From Sphyrna mokarran (lineage: Eukaryota): a stretch of DNA of 64,000 nucleotides. Within the stretch, counting starts at the first letter, position 1; every line of letters begins with the position of its first letter. Below the pieces are notes generated by a model. It was not told where the DNA came from, searched no databases, and saw nothing but the letters and a program-made list of their open reading frames with translations. This document shows positions 25,008-52,269 of this stretch, one piece after another. The position numbers were made by a program, and so were the translations under genes. The DNA lies in assembly GCA_024679065.1 (NCBI GenBank), contig JAGIQG010000029.1, positions 8,928,001 through 8,992,000 of the forward strand, read 5' to 3'.

Positions 25008-25390
25008 GTGAAGGAGGGGCTCCACAAATATTCCCATCCTCAAATGGTGGAGGGGTCCAGCAATCCAGGCAAACGATAACGCTGAAGCATTTATGAAAAT
25101 CTTAAGCCAGAAATGTTGAGTGGATGATCCATCTCTGCTGGCCCTCTGAGGATCTCAGCATTACAGATGTCAATCTTCAGTTGATTTAATTAACTCCATG
25201 TAATATCAGGAAATGGCTGAAGGCACTAGATATTGCAAAGGCTGTGGACAACATTCCAGCAATAGTACAGAAGACTTGTGCTCCAGAACCAGCTTTGCTC
25301 CCCAAGTTGTTCCAGTGCAGCTACAACAACACCATCTCTTTTGTAATGTGGAAAATTGCCCAGATATGCCCTGTCCACAAAGTGCAGGAC

Positions 25391-26812
25391 TTCCTACAGA
25401 AACTCAGCACACATGGAGCAGTAGAACCAGGGACACTCCTTGTCACAATGGATGTCTCGGCGCTCTACACCAACATCCCCCATGACAATGGTATTGCTGC
25501 AACTGCCTCAGTACTCAATGCCAACAACTGCCAGCTTCCGAATGCAATTTTACAACTCATCCGCTTCATCTTGGACCACAATGTCTTCACCTTCAACAAT
25601 CAGCTTTTCATCCAGACACACGGAACAGCCATGGAGACCAAATTCGCACCTCAGTATGCCAACATCTTCATGCACAGGTTTGAACAAGACTTCTTCACCA
25701 CACGAGATCTCCAACCAAGGTTATATACTATTTACATTGATGACATCTTTTTCCTTTGGACTCATGGTGAACAATCATTGAAACAACTGTATGATGATAT
25801 CAACAAGTTCCATTCCACCATCAGACTCACCATGGACTATTCTCCAGAATCAGTTGCATTCTTGGACACATGCGTCTCCATCAAGGACGGTCACCTCAGC
25901 ACCTCACTGTACTGCAAACCGACAGACAACCTCACAATGCTCCACTTCTCCAGCTTCCACCCTAGACACGTTAAAGAAGCCATTCCCTAGGGACAAGCCC
26001 TCCGTATACACAGAATTTGCTCAGATGAGGGGGATCGTGACAGACACCTCCAGACACTGAAGGATGCCCTTGTGAGAACAGGATATGGCGCTCGACTCAT
26101 CGATCGACAGTTCCGACGTGCCACAGCGATAAACCGCACTGACCTCCTCAAAAGACGAACACGGGACACGGTGGACAGAGTACCCTTTGTTGTCCACTAC
26201 TTCCCCGGAGTGGAGAAGCTACGACATCTTCTCCGGAGTCTTCAACATATCATTGACGATGATCATCTCACTAGGGCCATCCCCACCCCCCCACTTCTTG
26301 CTTTCAGTCAACCGCACAACCTCAAACAGATCATTGTTCGCAGCAAACTACCCAACCTTCAGGAGAACAGTGACCACAATACCATACAACCCTGCCACAG
26401 CAACCTCTGCAAGACATGCCGGATCATAGACGTGGACGACATCATCAAACGTGAGGATACCATTCACCAGGTGCACGGTACATACTCTTGCAAGTCGGCC
26501 AACGTTGTCTACCTAATACGTTGCAAGAAAGGATGTCCCGAAGCATGGTATATTGGGGAGACCATGCAGACACTACGACAGCTGATGAATGAGCATCGCT
26601 CAACAATCACCAGGCAAAACAGTTCCCTTCCTGTGGGCGAACACTTCAGCAGTCATGGGCATTCGGCCTCCGACCTGCGGGTAAACGTTCTTCAAGGGGG
26701 CTTTCGTGATACACGACAGCGCAGAGTCGCTGAACAGAGACTGATAGCCAAGCTCCGCACACATGAGGACGGTCTTAACAGGGATCTTGGCTTCATGACA
26801 CACTATCTGTAA
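25391..26812 (+). pseudogene. PLE reverse transcriptase + GIY-YIG endonuclease (single in-frame stop at 25988-25990)
   Basis: ORFs 25244-25990 and 26072-26812 are in the same frame; motifs TMDVSALYTNI, GTAMxTKFAPQYANIFM, YIDDIF, C-x3-C-KTC, NVVYLIRC...WYIGET, GLN; IP*GQALR is probably IPYGQALR. Confidence 0.92.
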
Positions 26813-43280: not shown

Positions 43281-46200
43281 CATGGTACAGTGGTTATGTC
43301 ACTGGCCTTGTAATTCCAAGACCTTGGGCTTCTGATTCAGAAAGTGAGCGTTAAAATCCCACAGTTTTAACATTTTAATTAAAATCCTTCCTTAGAAAAG
43401 GAAAATCTGAATAATAAAAGCTGATAGTGCTAGTGGAAATTGTTGGGTTGTCATTAAAAAGCCAATTAATTCACTAGACCGTCTGTCTTGACTAGTGAGC
43501 CCAGTGCAGGATTTCAGCATTACCAGTGTGATTGACTTTTAACTGACCTCTGGAGTGGCTCAGTAAGCCACACAGTTTACCAAACTGCTACAACAAAGTG
43601 TAACAGCTATCATTGCCCCAAGTACTGGATTCAGAAATGTGAATGGCATATCCAGCCCAGCTGATTCTGTAAATTCCTCCTCATACCTGGGGAATCCTGC
43701 CAGAACTAGAAGAGCTGGCCCATGGAGTGGCCAAATAAAAGTCTAATATTTGATGTGACACTGTCCCAGACTGTTCAATCACCATCTCTCAATATGAGGA
43801 GGTTTACCAGGATGTTGCTTGGTATGATGGCTAGATCTTTTGAGGAAAGGCTAAGGGAATTGAAGTTATTTTCATTAGAGAGAAGAAGGCTAAGCGGTGA
43901 CTTAATTGAGACATATAGATGATCAGAGGGTTAGATAGGGTGGATAGTGAGAGCCTTTTTCCTCAGGTGGAGATGGATAACACAAGGGGACATAACTACC
44001 ACCACCTTAATTTAAAGCTATAGGACAGAAGCTAGAGGTGGGTTTTTTACTCAGAGGGTAGTAAGGGCATGGAATGCCCTGCCTGCAGCAATTGTGGACT
44101 CATCAAGTTTACGGGCGTTCAAATGGTCAGTGGGTAGGCATATGGAAAGCATTGGAATAGTTTAGGATAGAGGATCATAAAATTGGTTCCATTGATTGGC
44201 ACAACATCGAGGGCCGAAGGGCCTGTACTGCGCTGTAATGTTCTATGTACTGTCCCAGCACAGGATGAACTCTCAAGAGGTGGTCAACATTAACATTGGG
44301 TGGAACACTGTGTCTTGTAGTTTCAAATCAAACCTGGGCAAGGAAACTTTAGTCAGCTGATGAATTGGTAGTTGAAAAGTACTTGGAAGGGGCGCACACT
44401 GTGGATGGAATGCATCAATGTCTGCCATCATATATGGCTCAGTGCCATCACTGCTGACCAAGCTGGCTGATACCTTGGAGTGTATTCACATCTGAGGAAG
44501 CTCTTGTGGTGCAGCACCACTACTCGCTGCTACGTGGGATTAGTTCAGAATAGATGTGGCAGCTTAAAACAGGAGGTCTGTGAGGTGCTGTGGACCATCA
44601 GCAGCATTGTATCCCAACACAGTTCTCACCTCAGCACAGCATATTCCTCACTCTGCTAAGATCTGAGACTAATCCTGGTTTGGGCAGGAATGAAGGAAAG
44701 CAACCAAGGAATAGCACCTGGTATAACGAATGAGCTGATAGCTTGTTAAGATCCAATACAAGAGTGTGTGCATGTTATAGGTGGAGTTAGAGATAAATAT
44801 AGAAAATAGAGCAGGAGTAAGCCATTTGGCCCTTCGAGCCTGCTCTGCCATTCATTTTGATCATCACTGATCATCAAAATCAATCCCTTAGCCCCAGGAA
44901 CTATGTCTAATTTCTCCCTGAAATTTCCATTATTACATTATGGTAGTGAATTCCAAGCATTTACCACTCTGGGCAGAATGGTGGCACAGTGGCTAGCACT
45001 GCTGCCCCACCATTGGGGCCATTGATCCCATCACCAATGAATCATATCAAAGTCCTGCTTCATTCTGTTGTGAATGGTTGTAAAAATTGAACAACTAACA
45101 GGTAAAGGAAATGCCATGTATATCCCCATCCTTTAAATGTGTATATAGTTTATCATGAGGCAACAAGTGCTTACCACCAGCTTCAGCCATGAGTACCATG
45201 GATTATCCTTCTCCGTGCCCTCTGAGGCCCAAACATCACAGAATGCAATCTTCTGCCAATTTAAATCTCCTTGTGACATCAAGATATGTCTGAATGTGCT
45301 GGATGTGGCAAAGGGTGTGTTTGTTGGCCAACGCCTCGGCTTCAGTGCTGGTGACTGCTCTCTCTCAAGGTTGTTCCAACATAGCACCGACGTCGAAGCA
45401 ATGAAGTGGAAATGCCTATCCATAAAATGCAGGACATTATTCAATCCATCCAAGGTATCAACCTACTTTTCAATCATCAGAAAAGTGATGGAAGGGTCTG
45501 TTGGTGCAATCAAATAATCTTTAATAACCTCACTGTTCAAATTGGGAGCACTCATCTGCAGCCTGCATTACATTCAAGGCCCACAAAGGGATGAAAGAGT
45601 TGGGCCGAAGGGCCTATTTCCCGTGCTGTTTTGTTTTTTTCTGTTCTTTCTTTGTTCTTAGTTGTATTTTAGAGGTGAGCAGAGAGTGACTGCTTTAGTA
45701 CCAAGGTAGCAATTGAATGATTGTGGCATCAAGGAACCCTAATAAAATTCAAGTCAATGGGACTTGGTGTAGGGGGTGGGGAAAATTTATTCTCTGGACA
45801 GAGTTGTATCTAGCCCAAAGGAAAATGGCTTTGATTGCCAGAGATCATCATCCAAGCTTCAGGATGTCATTTACAAGAATTCCCCAGGACAGTGTCTTAA
45901 ATCTAACATTTTTAGCTGCTTTGTCAATGACTTTCCTGTCATTGTAAGGTCAGAAGTGTGGATACTTGCTGATGATTACATTGTGCTAAGTACTATTGGT
46001 GACTCTTCAGATATTGAATTGGTCCATGCTGCATTGCAAAAAGATTTGGATGATATTTGGGTTTGGCAAGTAAGTTCACTTGGCAGTTGCTGGAGATGGT
46101 CATGATTGCCACGCAAGAGAAGGTCTAACTATCTTTTCTTGACATTCACTGGCATTATCATAGTTGAATCCAGCTGTGTGGGGAATGAGCAGAAACCTAA

Positions 46201-46670
46201 CCAGATCAGTGCTTACAGGAGCAGGTCAGGGGCTCGGAATTCTGCTGTGAGTAACTTGCTTGCTGATTTCCCCAGACCTTGTCCATCTGCAAGGCACAAG
46301 TCAGGAGTATGATGGAGTCTTCCACCTTCCTGATGAGTGCAGCTCCAACATCGTCCAATTCGAAGCAGTTGAATTGATCAGCATCTCATCTGCCATTGGT
46401 GCAGCATAGTTGTGATCTATAAGATGAAACTCATCAAGACTTCTTCATTAGCACCTTTCAAACTCATAAACTCTGCTAGTTGGAAGCACGAAGGCAGCAA
46501 GTCTCTTTTGGTCCTCATTTGAAAAGATATCATTGCTGGGTTAGAATCCTGGGACTTGGATCTCTAAAAGCATTGTGGGAATGCCTTCATTACACGGTGA
46601 GTTGCTGCACCCCACTTAGTGAGGTAATTTACAATGGCCGATAAATGCTGACTTTGTGAGGGGCAGCGAC
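43281..46670 (+). mobile_element. Second copy of the old tRNA-headed CR1/L2-group LINE, interrupted by CR1 3' ends (43795-44250, 44795-44970, 45600-45660)
   Basis: Head catggtacagtggttatgtcactgg; APE start about 43680; RT LADDY at about 45965; tail gataaatgctgactttg. Confidence 0.65.
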
Positions 46671-46987
46671 TCATGAATCGCTTCCTGTCAGATGAGCGAT
46701 TTTAAAAAATATTCAGTCTTGCATTGCAATGGGATTCTGAATTGCAGGTGCTTTGTGCTTTGTATATTGAGAGAGCAAGTGTTAGAGCTTCTTGGTAGCA
46801 TTAAAACTGATAAATCTCCGGGGCCTGATGGCATTTATCCCAGGCTGCTTAGGGAGGTGCGAGGTGAAATTGCTGAGCCTCTGACGCAAATCTTTGTCTC
46901 TTTGGACACAGGTGAGGTCCCAGAGGACTGGAGAATAGCTAATGTTGTACTGTTGTTTAAAAAGGGTAGTAGGGATAACCCTGGAAA

Positions 46988-47010
46988 GCGGGAGTAACTA
47001 TGACTCTCTT
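46988..47010 (+). rRNA. 23-nt fragment of 28S rRNA (R2 target upstream flank)
   Basis: gcgggagtaactatgactctctt matches 28S GGCGGGAGTAACTATGACTCTCTTAAGG^TAGCC. Confidence 0.92.
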
Positions 47011-47124
47011 GTTACTTTAGCTGTGCGTGTCTTGTCAATTCTGCCGCACAGTGAGCTGCGCCTCCTCGTCGGTCCCGCCGGGCAACATCACCGCTACTCC
47101 ATCGTGGTGATGGCTAAAGCAGCT
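46988..47124 (+). ncRNA. HDV-like self-cleaving ribozyme (R2 5' type)
   Basis: P1 GCGGG/CCCGC(C); P2 AGCUGC 47054-47059 / GCAGCU 47119-47124; P3 GCC/GGU; L3 UCCUCGUC; P1.1 CC/GG; GCAA; P4 CAUCACC/GGUGAUG; J4/2 GCUAAA with candidate catalytic C at 47114. Confidence 0.88.
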
Positions 47125-47880
47125 GTCCTAGAATCGACGCGGAGTAGTTGTTTGTCTGGATGCCCGTGTCAGGCTGCAACTACAGACAAGTGGATGGAAG
47201 GATTGGCTAAGCCGAAATAAAGGCGATTGATAGCCAATCCCTGTAACTGTGGGGTCTTCTGGTTTCTACCCACAGTGAGTCAATCCCTTCCGTGGGAGCC
47301 ACCTGGTACCGTCTCCTTGGGCACAGGAGTGGGTATTCCGTGACTGGTGGAGAAACAAATAGCGGGGGCGATGCATGCCAGGTCCACGACCACTACCACA
47401 ACCACTTGGACTGCCATCCAAGAGTGGTATTGATGGAAGGGACGCTGTTGTGTGTTGCATAGCTGTGGTATTCTTGGCATTCTAGACCACAGTGAGTCAG
47501 TCCTTACCGATGGTGCCACAGGGAATTCAGGCCTTCGAGCTGGCAGGCGATGGCCTGAAGGAATCTGACTGGCAGAGAATAGCCAAAATGCTTCTATGCC
47601 TATAAACCCGGTTATTGGTGAAAGAGAAAAAGTTTTGGCTTGACAAGTTCCGGCTTGTCCCGGGGTTAATTGGTGATCCGCTGGCGGATGCGGTCACGCT
47701 TATCTAGGCATCAGAAGCACCCGCGACCCCCTACCCACACAATTCGGTACAGAGGGTAAGACGAACGAACTGTGCCTGGTGTGACACGGAGAAGGGACGT
47801 AGTGCCCCGTCTTGTCTCTGATGATCACTACCAGCGGATGACATCGACACCGATTTCCACCCAGGTGTCGCGGTACGTAT

Positions 47881-48079
47881 GGGCAACACATCAGCCCAGT
47901 GATTAGCACTGCTGGCTGGTCAGCTATAAGGACCCTGGGTCGACCATCGACCTCGGCCTGTGGCTGAGGGAGTTTGCACATTCTCTCCGTGTTTGCGTGG
48001 GTTTTCCCCGGGTACTCCGGTTTCCTCCCACATACCCAAAAACGTGCTAACTCGGTTAATTGGCTAAGACAAAATTGTC
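47881..48079 (+). mobile_element. Diverged tRNA head and V-domain SINE cassette inside the R2-like element
   Basis: gggcaacac...cagtgattagcactgctg...gggagtttgcacattctctccgtgtttgcgtgggttttccccgggtactccggtttcctcccaca; no SINE tail. Confidence 0.85.
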
Positions 48080-48365
48080 ACGTCACCTAATCTGGCTCCC
48101 TTTTGATTTGGCACAAATATATCCCTTAAATTCTAAATTCCCTCCCTCATGTAAGAGAGCCGAGCACCGACCACACAATGCCGTCAAAAGGCTCATTAAA
48201 TTGCCCATAAACATCAGGGATGACAATAAATAGAGCTTTCTATAAAATCTTAGCTTAAATCCCAGCTCATACCCCAGCTAATAACATCTTAGCAGGGAAT
48301 CCAACCGAGCCACAAACTTAGATCAAGTAGACCCCGGCTGGGGCTCTGCTAGTGGTAGACCAAAC

Positions 48366-48419
48366 CGTCGACGAGCGACGTAAAGACTCGGAAAAGGCAC
48401 TCATGCGGGTGTATTAAAA
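48366..48419 (+). other. R2-type 3' terminal pseudoknot plus hairpin (putative R2 protein recognition module)
   Basis: Stem CGUCG/CGACG with loop ACGAG pairing to CUCG (48387-48390), then GAAAAG, hairpin GCACUC/GGGUGU, A tail. Confidence 0.72.
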
Positions 48420-48859
48420 TAGGCTGGTGAGTTTGACGTCAGTGGTAGGGAAGCTGTTGGAGGGGATTCTTAGGATGTATAGGCACTTAGAGCGTTGCGA
48501 TCTGATTAGGGATACGCAGCATGGCTTTAAGGGGAGGTCATGCCTTACAAATCTGGTAGAATTTTTTGAGGAGGTGACGAAGACGGTGGATGAAGGGCGA
48601 GGCGTTGATGTCGTCTATATGGATTTTAGTAAGGCGTTTGACAAAGTCCCTCGTGGGAGGTTAGTTGAGAATGTCAAGGCTAATGAGATACAAGGACAGG
48701 TAGCTAGATGGATAAGTAACTGGCTTGGTAATAGGAGACAGAGAGTAATAGTGGAAGGGTGTTTTTCTAGCTGGAGGTCGGTCACTAGTGGTGTGCCGCA
48801 GGGCTCGGTACTGGGACCTCTTCTATTTGTAATATATATAAATGACTTGGAGTAAGTCC

Positions 48860-49017
48860 CTTTGTATATTGAAAGAGCAAATGTTAGAGCTTCTAGGTAG
48901 CATTAAAACTGATAAATCTCGGGGCTGATGGCATTTATCCCAGGCTGCTTAGGGAGGTGCGAGGTGAAATTGCTGAGCCTCTGACGCAAATCTTTGTCTC
49001 TTGGACACAGGTGAGGT
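48860..49017 (+). repeat. Internal direct duplication of 46758-46918 within the CR1 RT
   Basis: ctttgtatattga...gggaggtgcgaggtgaaattgctgagcctctgacgcaaatctttgtctc...ggacacaggtgaggt occurs twice, differing by a few substitutions and 1-2 nt indels. Confidence 0.95.
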
Positions 49018-51559
49018 GCAAGAGAGTAAGTGGGTGATCAGCAAGTTTGCAGACGATACAAAGATGGCTGGACTTGCGGATAGTGAGGAGCATTGTCAGG
49101 CGATACAGCAGGACATAGGCTGGTAGCTTGGGCAGACAGATGGCAGATGGAATTCAATCCTGATAAATGTGAGGTGATGCATTTTGGGAGAAAGAATGTA
49201 GGGGCGAGGTATATGAGAAAGGGTAGACCTATTAAGAGTATAGAAACGCAGAGGGACCTGGGGGTGCAGGTGAACAAGTCTCTGAAGGTGGCAGAGCAAG
49301 TGGAGAAGAAAGCATATGGTATGTTTTCCTTTATAGGAAGGGGTATAGAGTACAAGAGCTGGCCTTTAACGTTGCAGTTGTATAAAATGTTGGTTAGATC
49401 TCGTTTGGAATACTGCGTCCAGTTCTGGCCGCCTTACTACCGGAAGGATGTAGAGACTCTAGAAGGAGTGCAGAGGAGGTTTACCAGGATGCTGACTGGT
49501 ATGGAAGGTCTGAGTTACGAGGAGAGGTTAGGCAAATTGGGGCTGTTTTCCTTAAAAAGACGTAGACTTAGAGGAGATCTAATAGAGGTGTACAAGATTG
49601 AGGGGTATAGGTAGAGTTAACAGGGTTAAGCTTTTTCCTAGGATGGACTCAAATAGCACGAGGGGTCAAGGGCTTCGGGTGAGGGGGTAAGGTATAATTT
49701 GGATGCTAGAGGGAGTTTTTTCACACAGAGGATGGCGGGGGTATGGAACGCGCTGCCAAGTAAAATGGTGGAGGCAGGTACTCTGGAGTTATTTAAGAGA
49801 TACTTAGATGGGCACATGAACAGAATGGGAATGGAGGGGTATAGAAAACTGATTTAAAATAGGGATCATGAGCCTTGGGAGTCCCTGGGAAGTGTGTGAA
49901 TAGATGATGATATTGATGTATTTGTTTTTATCCTACAGGTACTTTGGTCCACCTTGTTGCCTAATAAGAGGCGTACACGTGATGGGTTGTGAGAGGGCTG
50001 CTCTTGGATTTTTGTTTTTGAGAGTATCTTAGTGCTTCACATCGTTAGTGTACGCTTGACCTGGACCATTTGATGGGCAACATGACAGCTCAGTGACTAT
50101 CTCTGTGCTGTGCAGATACATGGATTTGGGCCTGTGTCTGTGGGAGTTTGTGCATTCTCCCCGTGTTTGCGTGGGTTTTGTCCAAGTGTTCTGGTTTCCT
50201 CCCACATCCCAAAGATGTGCTCTTAGGCTGATTGGCAGAACAAACTCTTCCTAAATTGTCTGAAATTTGGTTTTTAGTCCATGGATGTATAAACATAGAC
50301 AGGGATCACGTGTAGAAGTGAGAACATCAAGGTGGCGGCGTGGGCTTGTTGGGCCGAAGGGCCTGTTTCCCATGCTGTTTTGTTGTTTGTTCTTTGAGAC
50401 TTCCATCTGCAACTAGTACGGTGTCTTTATTTTGCCTTCCGCATGGCTTCAATTTGGAGAGACTTGGGCAAAACTGGACCACCATCGCCACTGGATTTAT
50501 TACTGGCACTGAGCAGTAAAGTGTTGGCACTGAAATGTAAAGATACCTGTTGAAGATTGATGATGACATGGTAGCATCTTCTGAATATTGCCAGTGGTTC
50601 ATTGACGATGGAGCTTTTACCCCAGAGCTATGTGTTTATGTTCTGTAGCTCTTGAGATAGTTTACATGCAAGAATTTCCTTGGAAAACTGCTGTGTTTGT
50701 CTGAAGCAGCATTGCTTGAGAATTAATCAGCATGAAAGTTATCTTTAAAGGCAAAAGTATTATAAATGTTAATGTTAATGCATAGGTGGCATCTAGACAG
50801 GGTAGTGTTTCCATACCAGGTGTGAGATGCATACTCTTTGTCTCCAGGCTAATCACTAGATGTAAATGACATAGCGGGAAGTATTAAATGATGTTGAAGT
50901 TGTTAATGTCTTTGTCACTTTGAGGCTTAATATAATCACATTGATATCTTCCTTCAGTTAATTTATTGTTTTGAAGGTAAAACGTTGGAACCTTTTTTAT
51001 TTCATTTTTCTCGTCAACACACAATAAATTGAAACTGGAGATGGATAAAGCTGCAAACTTGGGTCTCCTGAACGGAACTTGACTTGTTCCTCCAGAGAAA
51101 CTCAGGCTTTTGAACTGTTTGCTTTGTTCTCCTAAATACTCTGCAGTCTCACAGCTTCCATAAAATAATGACTTTTGTTGCTTTGAAAGAGTGTTTTAAT
51201 GAAACTGCAGAGAACTATTATTGGTTTCTACTGCAGCTTTTAAGATTGTAATTCTAATAAGAGTGCATTAGTTTAAATTGGATCATGCATGTAGTGAGTT
51301 CTTGCTATATTTATGGGGTGCAGTGTGTATGTTTATGTATTTAGAACTTAAAATTGAAGCTTTCCTCAACCTCAGAAAAAAGGAAAACAATGCAAATGCA
51401 TCAGAGACTGTTTCTTGGATCTTAACCAGCAAGAATATCGAACATTTTGTACATATTGTACAATTAATTATGTTGTTTGTCTATGTTTCCGTGTTTTGTA
51501 TACTATTTTATAGTACTTGCTTTTTAAGAAACACCAGTATACAAAATATACCAGTATAC

Positions 51560-51898
51560 AAAATACAAGAGGAATAGATAGGGTGGAGTCTCAGAGACTA
51601 TTTCCCAGGGCTGAAATGGTCGCGACAAGAGGGCACAGATTTAAGGTGCAGGGAAGCAAGTACAGAGGGGATGCTAGGGGAAAGTTTTTCACTCAGAGGG
51701 TGGTGAGTGAATGGAATCGGCTGCCGTCGGTGGTGGTCGAGGCGAACTCGCTGGGGTCTTTTAAAAGACTTCTGGATGAGTATATGGGATCCAATGGGAT
51801 TGGGGTTATAGATAGGTCTATGGCTGGGTAGGTTTTGATGTGTTCGGCACAACTTGTGGGCCGAAGGGCCTGTTTGTGCTGTAGTGTTCTATGTTCTA
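51560..51898 (+). mobile_element. CR1 LINE 3' end
   Basis: RGIDRV...TRGH...FFTQRVVSEWN; tail gggccgaagggcctgtttgtgctgtagtgttctatgttcta; preceded by tandem duplication accagtatacaaaat. Confidence 0.85.
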
Positions 51899-52269
51899 AA
51901 ACACTTGAATGTTTCCGACGATGTGAGATAATGAGTGATATAGTAGACACCCTACACGTTCCCCTGTAAGCAGTTGATATGAGGATGGTTAATTGCAGAG
52001 AGTAGAGACTTGTTTTTTGAAAACTGTCTATTGCATAATTAAAGGTACAGGATAAGAGCTTTTCCTGGAGCAGATGAGTGCTGCTGAATGGCAGCATAAC
52101 TTATGTTTGTACTGGGTCAAGAGTAAGAGTTCAAACCCATTTTTAAACAGAAAAATGTTTATGGAGTGTGGGGCATCACTGATTAGACTAGCCCATCCCT
52201 GGTTGCTCTTTATAAGGTGCTGGTGAGCTGGTTTCTTGAACCACTGCAGTCCCTGAGGCATAGGTACAC

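Follow-up and report, generated by a model that had tools for sequence, protein, structure and literature searches.

A 1,432-nt insert that splits a CR1 reverse-transcriptase frame in the shark Sphyrna mokarran is, we are confident, a short, internally deleted R2 element of the SIDE type, copied in trans by the protein of a lineage-A R2 in the same genome. We refer to the insert and its relatives as the passenger, and to the autonomous R2 as its partner. The insert lies at positions 46988-48419 of the window, by which we mean the whole 64,000-nt stretch of DNA that was analysed. These ends are exactly those given in the first-pass annotation, made from the sequence alone: the CR1 frame is interrupted after KKGSRDNPG on the left and resumes on the right with a segment given there as 11 residues. 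An unoccupied copy of this CR1 site shows that three bases of the target have been lost and none duplicated. The description of the insert as CpG-rich and lacking a long ORF also holds, in that the observed/expected CpG ratio reaches 0.72 where the window as a whole has 0.30, no stop-free stretch exceeds 76 aa (+) or 137 aa (-), and tblastn gave no sense-strand match to R2 protein in the insert better than E 5. The same annotation proposed a non-autonomous R2 parasite of a cartilaginous fish, an identity to which the sequence evidence set out below points: many genomic copies, an autonomous R2 whose termini are homologous, and copies with 28S joined at their 3' side.

Table 1. Features of the insert and its CR1 flanks, in window coordinates.
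Feature	Positions	Strand	Remarks
Host CR1 fragment, left half of target	46760..46987	+	Contains GTA; the T is 21 nt 5' of the nick
Full-length copy of the probable non-autonomous R2-derived element	46988..48419	+	Subfamily A of at least five
28S-derived leader (R2 target -27 to -5)	46988..47010	+	Gives the 5' strand of P1
HDV-like ribozyme, module 1	46988..47123	+	Complete predicted fold with catalytic-type J4/2 strand; homologous to autonomous R2 ribozyme, z 7.6
Module 2, duplicate of the ribozyme module	47188..47345	+	Hairpin, P2, P3 and P4 kept, J4/2 non-canonical; z 5.6 to module 1, 8.6 to module 3; pairing across 50 copies
Module 3, second duplicate	47362..47570	+	Helices kept, J4/2 strand absent; z 5.9 to module 1
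Region conserved among subfamilies	47571..47878 (insert positions 584-891)	+	Homology to autonomous R2 undetectable; z -1.2 and -1.3 against proximal R2 3' UTR
SINE head and body, common to autonomous R2 3' UTR	47879..48079	+	77-81% to R2 3' UTRs; free copies in window
Region homologous to last 540 nt of autonomous R2 3' UTR	47880..48419 (insert positions 893-1432)	+	71-74% identical, lowest E 1e-96
Terminal pseudoknot (48366-48390), linker, hairpin (48398-48411) and short A tail	48366..48419	+	Presumed site of R2 protein binding
Host CR1 fragment, right half of target	48420..48852	+	Begins TAGG

Elsewhere in the window, 168 nt of the host CR1 (46758-46925) recur at 48860-49024 with 95% identity, from the same CR1 fragment. 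A CpG-richer patch at 25190-26809 (+) holds two adjoining open stretches of 266 and 273 aa that appear by eye to be of Penelope type.

Other genomic copies, on which the initial reading depended, are abundant. A 23-nt 3' pattern gave 314 genome matches with at most one mismatch and 0 for the control, so the passenger copy number is at least 314. A DNA search, in which the best 40 of 2,954 candidates were scored, gave at least 45 matches with identities of 84-100%. Among the first 30 loci listed for the 3' pattern, 19 reach ribozyme module 1 and none contains an R2 ORF. Fifty near-complete copies fall into five groups, lying on average 1.6-3.2% from the majority sequence of their own group (the lowest 0.5%), while eight representative copies are 80-97% identical to one another. 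Head-to-tail passenger dimers with a slightly 5'-truncated second unit occur at three places (L019/L022, L023 and L048), and would fit either end-to-end template jumping or repeated insertion into a single site.

The query that uncovered the partner was L099, a piece of R2 taken from a 28S junction in metagenome data, whose best PDB match is 8gh6. This search gave 68 matches in the genome, spread over many large contigs, with open frames of 1,345-1,358 aa in nine. The single ORF encodes three zinc fingers, a Myb domain, a reverse transcriptase and a restriction-like endonuclease, and its product scores 720 bits against R2Tg, the R2 of zebra finch; the nearest database relatives are from catshark and bamboo shark, at 60-62%, in support of a host among the cartilaginous fishes. 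In a quick, midpoint-rooted tree of 36 rows, from which the four weakest matches and two short rows were omitted, the shark clade (support 100) is sister to the bird and bony-fish rows (96), within lineage A. Four R2 copies measure 4.93-4.96 kb, and a further one has an insertion and a cut 5' end. R2 copies are 98-99% identical. The genome as a whole has 189 R2-type 3' ends, the variant form included, and at least 40 5' ends; pseudoknot cores total 561. Many of the one-mismatch matches to the R2-type 3' end share a variant linker. An autonomous R2 with termini homologous to those of the insert, as the initial reading presupposed, is thus present in the same genome: it shares the 28S leader, its ribozyme is related (z 7.6), and over the final 540 nt of the insert its SINE-containing 3' UTR shows 71-74% identity. 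The shared 3' portion had been put at 60 nt, which understates it ninefold.

The SINE cassette, a putative V-SINE, is homologous to a free-standing SINE elsewhere in the window. Of the tRNA/V-SINE cassette originally described, the SINE stands; ARAGORN found no tRNA. The idea that structured non-coding RNA had taken the place of the ORF does not extend to the SINE, which was already in the R2 3' UTR. Of the structures reported at the end of the insert, the pseudoknot and hairpin have each base pair holding in 46-50 of 50 copies, and the same helices occur in autonomous R2. A comparable module lies within the last 67 nt of R2Tg, according to excerpts of PMC12222951. Just 5' of the pseudoknot is a hairpin unit of ~25 nt, single in subfamilies A and B and repeated up to four times in C, D and E (L031-L060).

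At the other end, the first 23 nt of the insert were said to be 28S sequence, and they do match eukaryotic 28S upstream of the R2 site, both in metagenome contigs and in a passage of PMC3774820. Excerpts of the same paper give -28 as the most frequent R2 cleavage site. Among 35 outer 5' junctions of the family, 13 start exactly at 28S -28 and four at -27, and 28S sequence further upstream than -28 is absent from all 35; the -28 G, which is the first base in those 13, is missing from the window copy. Three rows (L009, L010 and L020) were out of register in this comparison of junctions. Subfamily B 5' ends carry one or two additional degenerate repeats of the leader and subfamily D has only ~10 nt of it, with leader-variant 5' ends noted at L009-L015, L020, L025, L027, L028 and L030.

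The HDV-like ribozyme claimed for this end is supported as a predicted structure. The fold comprises P1, a J1/2 hairpin, P2, P3, P1.1 and P4, and in eight copies 95.8% of 239 cells pair, against 31-56% for slid-partner controls, with three pairs changed on both sides. A shuffle control is modestly exceeded: the paired fraction was reached by 8 of 500 shuffles, and the number of pairs changed on both sides by 291 of 500. Minimum-energy folding of the insert is unexceptional (z -1.2 and -1.7), and a scan of window positions 44000-52000 with Rfam gave no ribozyme match, and no relevant family at all, at E up to 1. The Rfam miss is probably explained by the long J1/2 and the pseudoknots.

The three 5' modules are homologous to one another (z 5.6-8.6, reached by 0 of 200 shuffles each, for segments chosen by eye), and each has the hairpin, P2, P3 and P4, with differing paired sequences. 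By a strict descriptor, the canonical J4/2, a catalytic C and following A residues, together with a paired cleavage site, is found in module 1 alone; descriptor matches were obtained for module 2 in three of five passenger copies tested and for module 3 in none. Modules 2 and 3 are probably non-cleaving. Cleavage by either finds no support, as the 5' ends of 10 truncated copies miss the predicted cut sites. Excerpts of PMC3774820 contain a proposal that R2 5' ends lengthen by duplications.

Between the ribozyme and the SINE, homology of insert positions 140-892 to the same-genome R2 was not detected, and the 3' UTRs are just 71-74% identical. Two candidate origins for this interval were discarded. 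The insert body is not recognisable as a decayed zinc-finger/Myb part of the R2 ORF by tblastn, nhmmer or shuffled alignments, and insert positions 590-892 do not behave as proximal R2 3' UTR, the shuffled alignments giving z below 0. That the 5' half cannot be aligned to the same-genome R2 past module 1 suggests that the direct parent of the passenger was probably an older or sister R2.

We then consider where these elements sit. Across 58 passenger-family 3' junctions (duplicate flanks removed and L036 left out), the target begins with TAG in 42 and TAGC in 26, against backgrounds of 1.3% and 0.3%; three exceptions are head-to-tail joins. Because empty CR1 sites carry them, the TAG bases are target-derived. 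Empty CR1 homologues, available for 13 of the 35 outer junctions, reveal losses of 0-8 bases and no duplication. Upstream, GTA occurs 13-23 nt away in 24 of 37 flanks, compared with 14% of control windows, and in 16 of 27 when CR1 hot spots are collapsed. It is important to bear in mind that this GTA window was picked after the flanks had been inspected; the 37 comprise 33 passenger and four R2 flanks, five tandem, simple-repeat or ambiguous rows having been dropped. The spacing is variable, with the T at -20 at two reconstructed sites and at -21 at one, and several sites without fit. In excerpts of PMC12222951, rare off-targets of R2Tg show a T at 20 bp upstream together with a match of 4-5 nt downstream, and the shark motif agrees with that off-target logo on two of its three features.

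The passenger and the autonomous R2 share this degenerate target and its CR1 hot spots. All 12 of the R2 3' junctions fetched by ORF lie outside rDNA (TAGC 6, TAGA 2, TAAC 2, TTGC 2), two of them at CR1 sites that the passenger has also used. The passenger junctions are of R2 type, with a nick before TAGC, a small 5' deletion and no target duplication. The partner is not strictly specific for 28S, as gauged on extant copies rather than insertion rates. Our conclusion is that it is a lineage-A R2 which is itself dispersed, and the likely driver of the passenger. In its zinc fingers the partner conserves the residues by which R2Tg reads -21/-20. An Asp-to-Lys change in the RT6a loop (R2Tg Asp923) was considered as the cause of relaxed targeting: Lys is found in every shark-clade row covering the loop and in none of the rows for bird, gar or herring. 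Since it occurs in several distant R2 rows as well, we treat the change as no more than a lead. Annotated shark R2 relatives are found on scaffolds of 255 kb, 487 kb and 2.0 Mb (P0001, P0003 and P0007), sizes hinting that dispersal may reach other sharks.

R2 normally inserts into ribosomal genes alone. The intact R2 target pattern has 0 matches in the searchable assembly and the upstream 28S only three, and therefore rDNA is nearly absent from it. A search for the 28S sequence that lies downstream of the R2 site gave 16 matches, of which the eight exact ones were read: two follow passenger 3' ends, two follow R2, two come after variant or older relatives, and the remaining two are bare pieces of 28S. 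The two passenger copies, one with ~80 nt of 28S and then chromosome, the other with ~174 nt, provide exact junctions of the element's 3' end with 28S, of the kind that the initial reading proposed to look for. No passenger copy with 28S on both sides was seen in this assembly, which barely represents rDNA. As neither 28S-tailed passenger locus is among the three genome matches to upstream 28S, the tails are most readily explained by read-through from a source within a 28S gene, and we infer that they derive from rDNA source copies. On balance we lean towards passenger source copies lying mainly in rDNA.

Among the R2 copies, one 3' end on a 7-kb contig is followed by ~890 nt of 28S. Another copy, L204 (G000 C882:97489575-97494693, on a large contig), is a full-length R2 with upstream 28S at its 5' end and, downstream, 128 nt of 28S followed by CR1; it represents either a co-transcript that was retrocopied uncut or the insertion of R2 into a piece of 28S. 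A diverged 3' end (L210, C1548:82445810-82445990) and a variant one (L205, C738), each joined to ~40 nt of 28S, represent further or older R2-related families. The bare fragments L208 and L209 have no element attached and begin 9-14 nt before the R2 site; they are possibly pieces of 28S RNA copied into the genome. Upstream 28S without an intact target next to it is found at G000 C1259:20989 and C1548:49718243, outside the 40 best R2 5' matches. Three metagenome contigs (L062, L139 and L140) have open frames of 958-1,310 aa slightly downstream of the R2 site in rDNA, and that in L140 looks like an element with a reverse transcriptase and restriction-like endonuclease at a different site.

The mechanism we propose runs as follows. 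A source copy would be co-transcribed with upstream sequence, most likely a 28S gene read by Pol I, and the HDV-like ribozyme would cut at 28S -28 to give the RNA its 5' end, as both fold and junctions suggest. The R2 protein would then bind the terminal pseudoknot and hairpin, a structure common to both elements, by analogy with R2Tg. Nicking at the degenerate target (GTA ~20 nt upstream and TAG(C)) and reverse transcription would follow, leaving the deletion of 0-8 nt without duplication that is seen at the junctions. The partner, still at 28S, would nevertheless place both itself and the passenger at hundreds of chromosomal sites. Mobilisation of the passenger in trans by the R2 protein is what these shared features suggest.

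The strongest alternative agrees on the R2 origin and departs solely on the degree of relaxed targeting. It holds that 28S specificity is ordinary, and that rare, dead-end off-target insertions launched from rDNA accumulate since the genome is slow to remove them, while rDNA purges its own copies. Extant locations can mislead for precisely that reason (PMC13580325), and the 28S tails point to rDNA sources. The target motif resembles the R2Tg off-target logo (excerpts of PMC12222951), the zinc-finger residues reading -21/-20 are conserved, and similarly built shark R2s are listed within 28S in the part of Table S2 of PMC13188248 compared here. Against such slow accumulation stand ~560 3' pseudoknot cores genome-wide and the youth of many dispersed copies (passenger copies down to 0.5% from their majority, R2 copies 98-99% identical, nine full open frames). 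R2Tg is >99% on-target in cells (excerpts of PMC12222951). We think it credible, though on the improbable side.

A second alternative is that the elements have escaped from rDNA, their own 28S-derived P1 strand letting dispersed copies leave read-through transcripts and so act as sources themselves. Full-length copies do have a complete predicted ribozyme, at least 40 dispersed R2 5' ends exist together with intact ORFs, and L026 and L029 have two leader-region changes in common. However, the downstream flanks shared among 70 junctions are CR1 sites, where the left flanks match too whenever both could be read; these are therefore independent insertions and not carried flanks. The sole carried flank found is 28S, which was directly sought. 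We regard escape as unlikely. Equally doubtful to us is its more elaborate form, in which a relaxed lineage-A R2 and its passenger propagate from chromosomal copies. There the captured 28S strand would make the ribozyme portable and turn read-through transcripts into templates, the extra folds would possibly protect the 5' end or bind protein, and the passenger would be a naturally optimised template outnumbering its driver.

We are far more sceptical of the suggestion that a SINE-like passenger is moved by CR1, or within CR1 transcripts, with its R2 features a leftover. The window copy and many others do lie inside CR1 repeats, and the element contains a SINE, but identical CR1 positions are shared by different subfamilies and by the autonomous R2, each with its own 5' deletion. 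Most copies have unrelated flanks, and their ends lie consistently at -28 and at the R2 3' module, without target duplications. An assembly artefact or chimera can be given virtually no credence in view of the hundreds of diverged copies, which are spread over many contigs of chromosome scale, differ in their flanks, form subfamilies and have empty sites that can be reconstructed.

Lineage-A R2 proteins are used for rDNA-targeted gene insertion. A close relative of R2Tg with intact ORFs and several hundred non-rDNA insertions offers a natural off-target map and a comparison protein, and a 2026 review (PMC13580325) asks for side-by-side comparisons on R2 specificity. If the passenger is mobilised as a SIDE-type element in trans, as we prefer, it would indicate which RNA parts are sufficient for trans-mobilisation in a vertebrate; that the ribozyme is reached in 19 of 30 sampled copies is relevant to template design. 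Surveys requiring 28S flanks can overlook most of a genome's R2 activity.

With regard to known R2s, the partner shares its three zinc fingers, Myb, reverse transcriptase and endonuclease with the lineage-A R2s of birds (R2Tg, PMC12222951) and of sharks and rays (PMC13188248), as well as -28 cleavage (predicted in the shark families) and a terminal pseudoknot, so far as excerpts of both papers describe them. By eye, the 5' end of stingray R2-1_HSa resembles passenger module 1 and the ribozyme of zebra shark R2-1_STig that of the partner (PMC13188248, from a comparison covering 10 of the 15 Chondrichthyes entries in Table S2). In one supplementary file of that paper, the exact 3' core of the passenger family has 0 matches. 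Excerpts of both papers describe the bird and shark lineage-A R2s as 28S-specific, unlike the dispersed partner; the survey in PMC13188248 was selected on 28S flanks and, in its excerpted text, names only sponge elements as non-site-specific. Non-site-specific R2s are described from a planarian and a fluke (R2NS-1_SMed and R2NS-1_CSi, clades D and C; excerpts of PMC5035012), and R2-like elements away from rDNA from cockroach (excerpts of PMC7650587). Those families are invertebrate, whereas the shark elements belong to vertebrate lineage A, keep the 28S leader, are still at 28S, and use a degenerate form of the same target.

The passenger has a related ribozyme, an R2-homologous 3' end and no coding capacity, and so appears on sequence to be an R2 SIDE. 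The R2 SIDE of D. willistoni (excerpts of PMC3414825) similarly combines a 5' HDV ribozyme and an R2 3' end with no ORF, around a middle without R2 identity, its ends being 64% and 81% identical to those of its partner. That element is 529 bp long and sits at the 28S site, while the shark passenger is 1.4-1.5 kb, mostly chromosomal and present in at least 314 copies; it also differs in its vertebrate host, its triplicated ribozyme module and the SINE in its inherited 3' UTR. RIME and NARTc (excerpts of PMC5786205) are alike in joining LINE 5' and 3' ends without an ORF, with a 5' ribozyme in some clades, but such elements derive from Ingi, Vingi or RTE, and the sole R2 example cited in those excerpts is the Drosophila SIDE. 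We found no report of a vertebrate R2 SIDE or a dispersed shark R2 in the mostly open-access literature searched, Repbase and Dfam lying outside it. Drosophila R2 SIDEs and shark R2s were already known; what is new, as far as that literature goes, is a SIDE in a vertebrate and the dispersal of both it and its R2.
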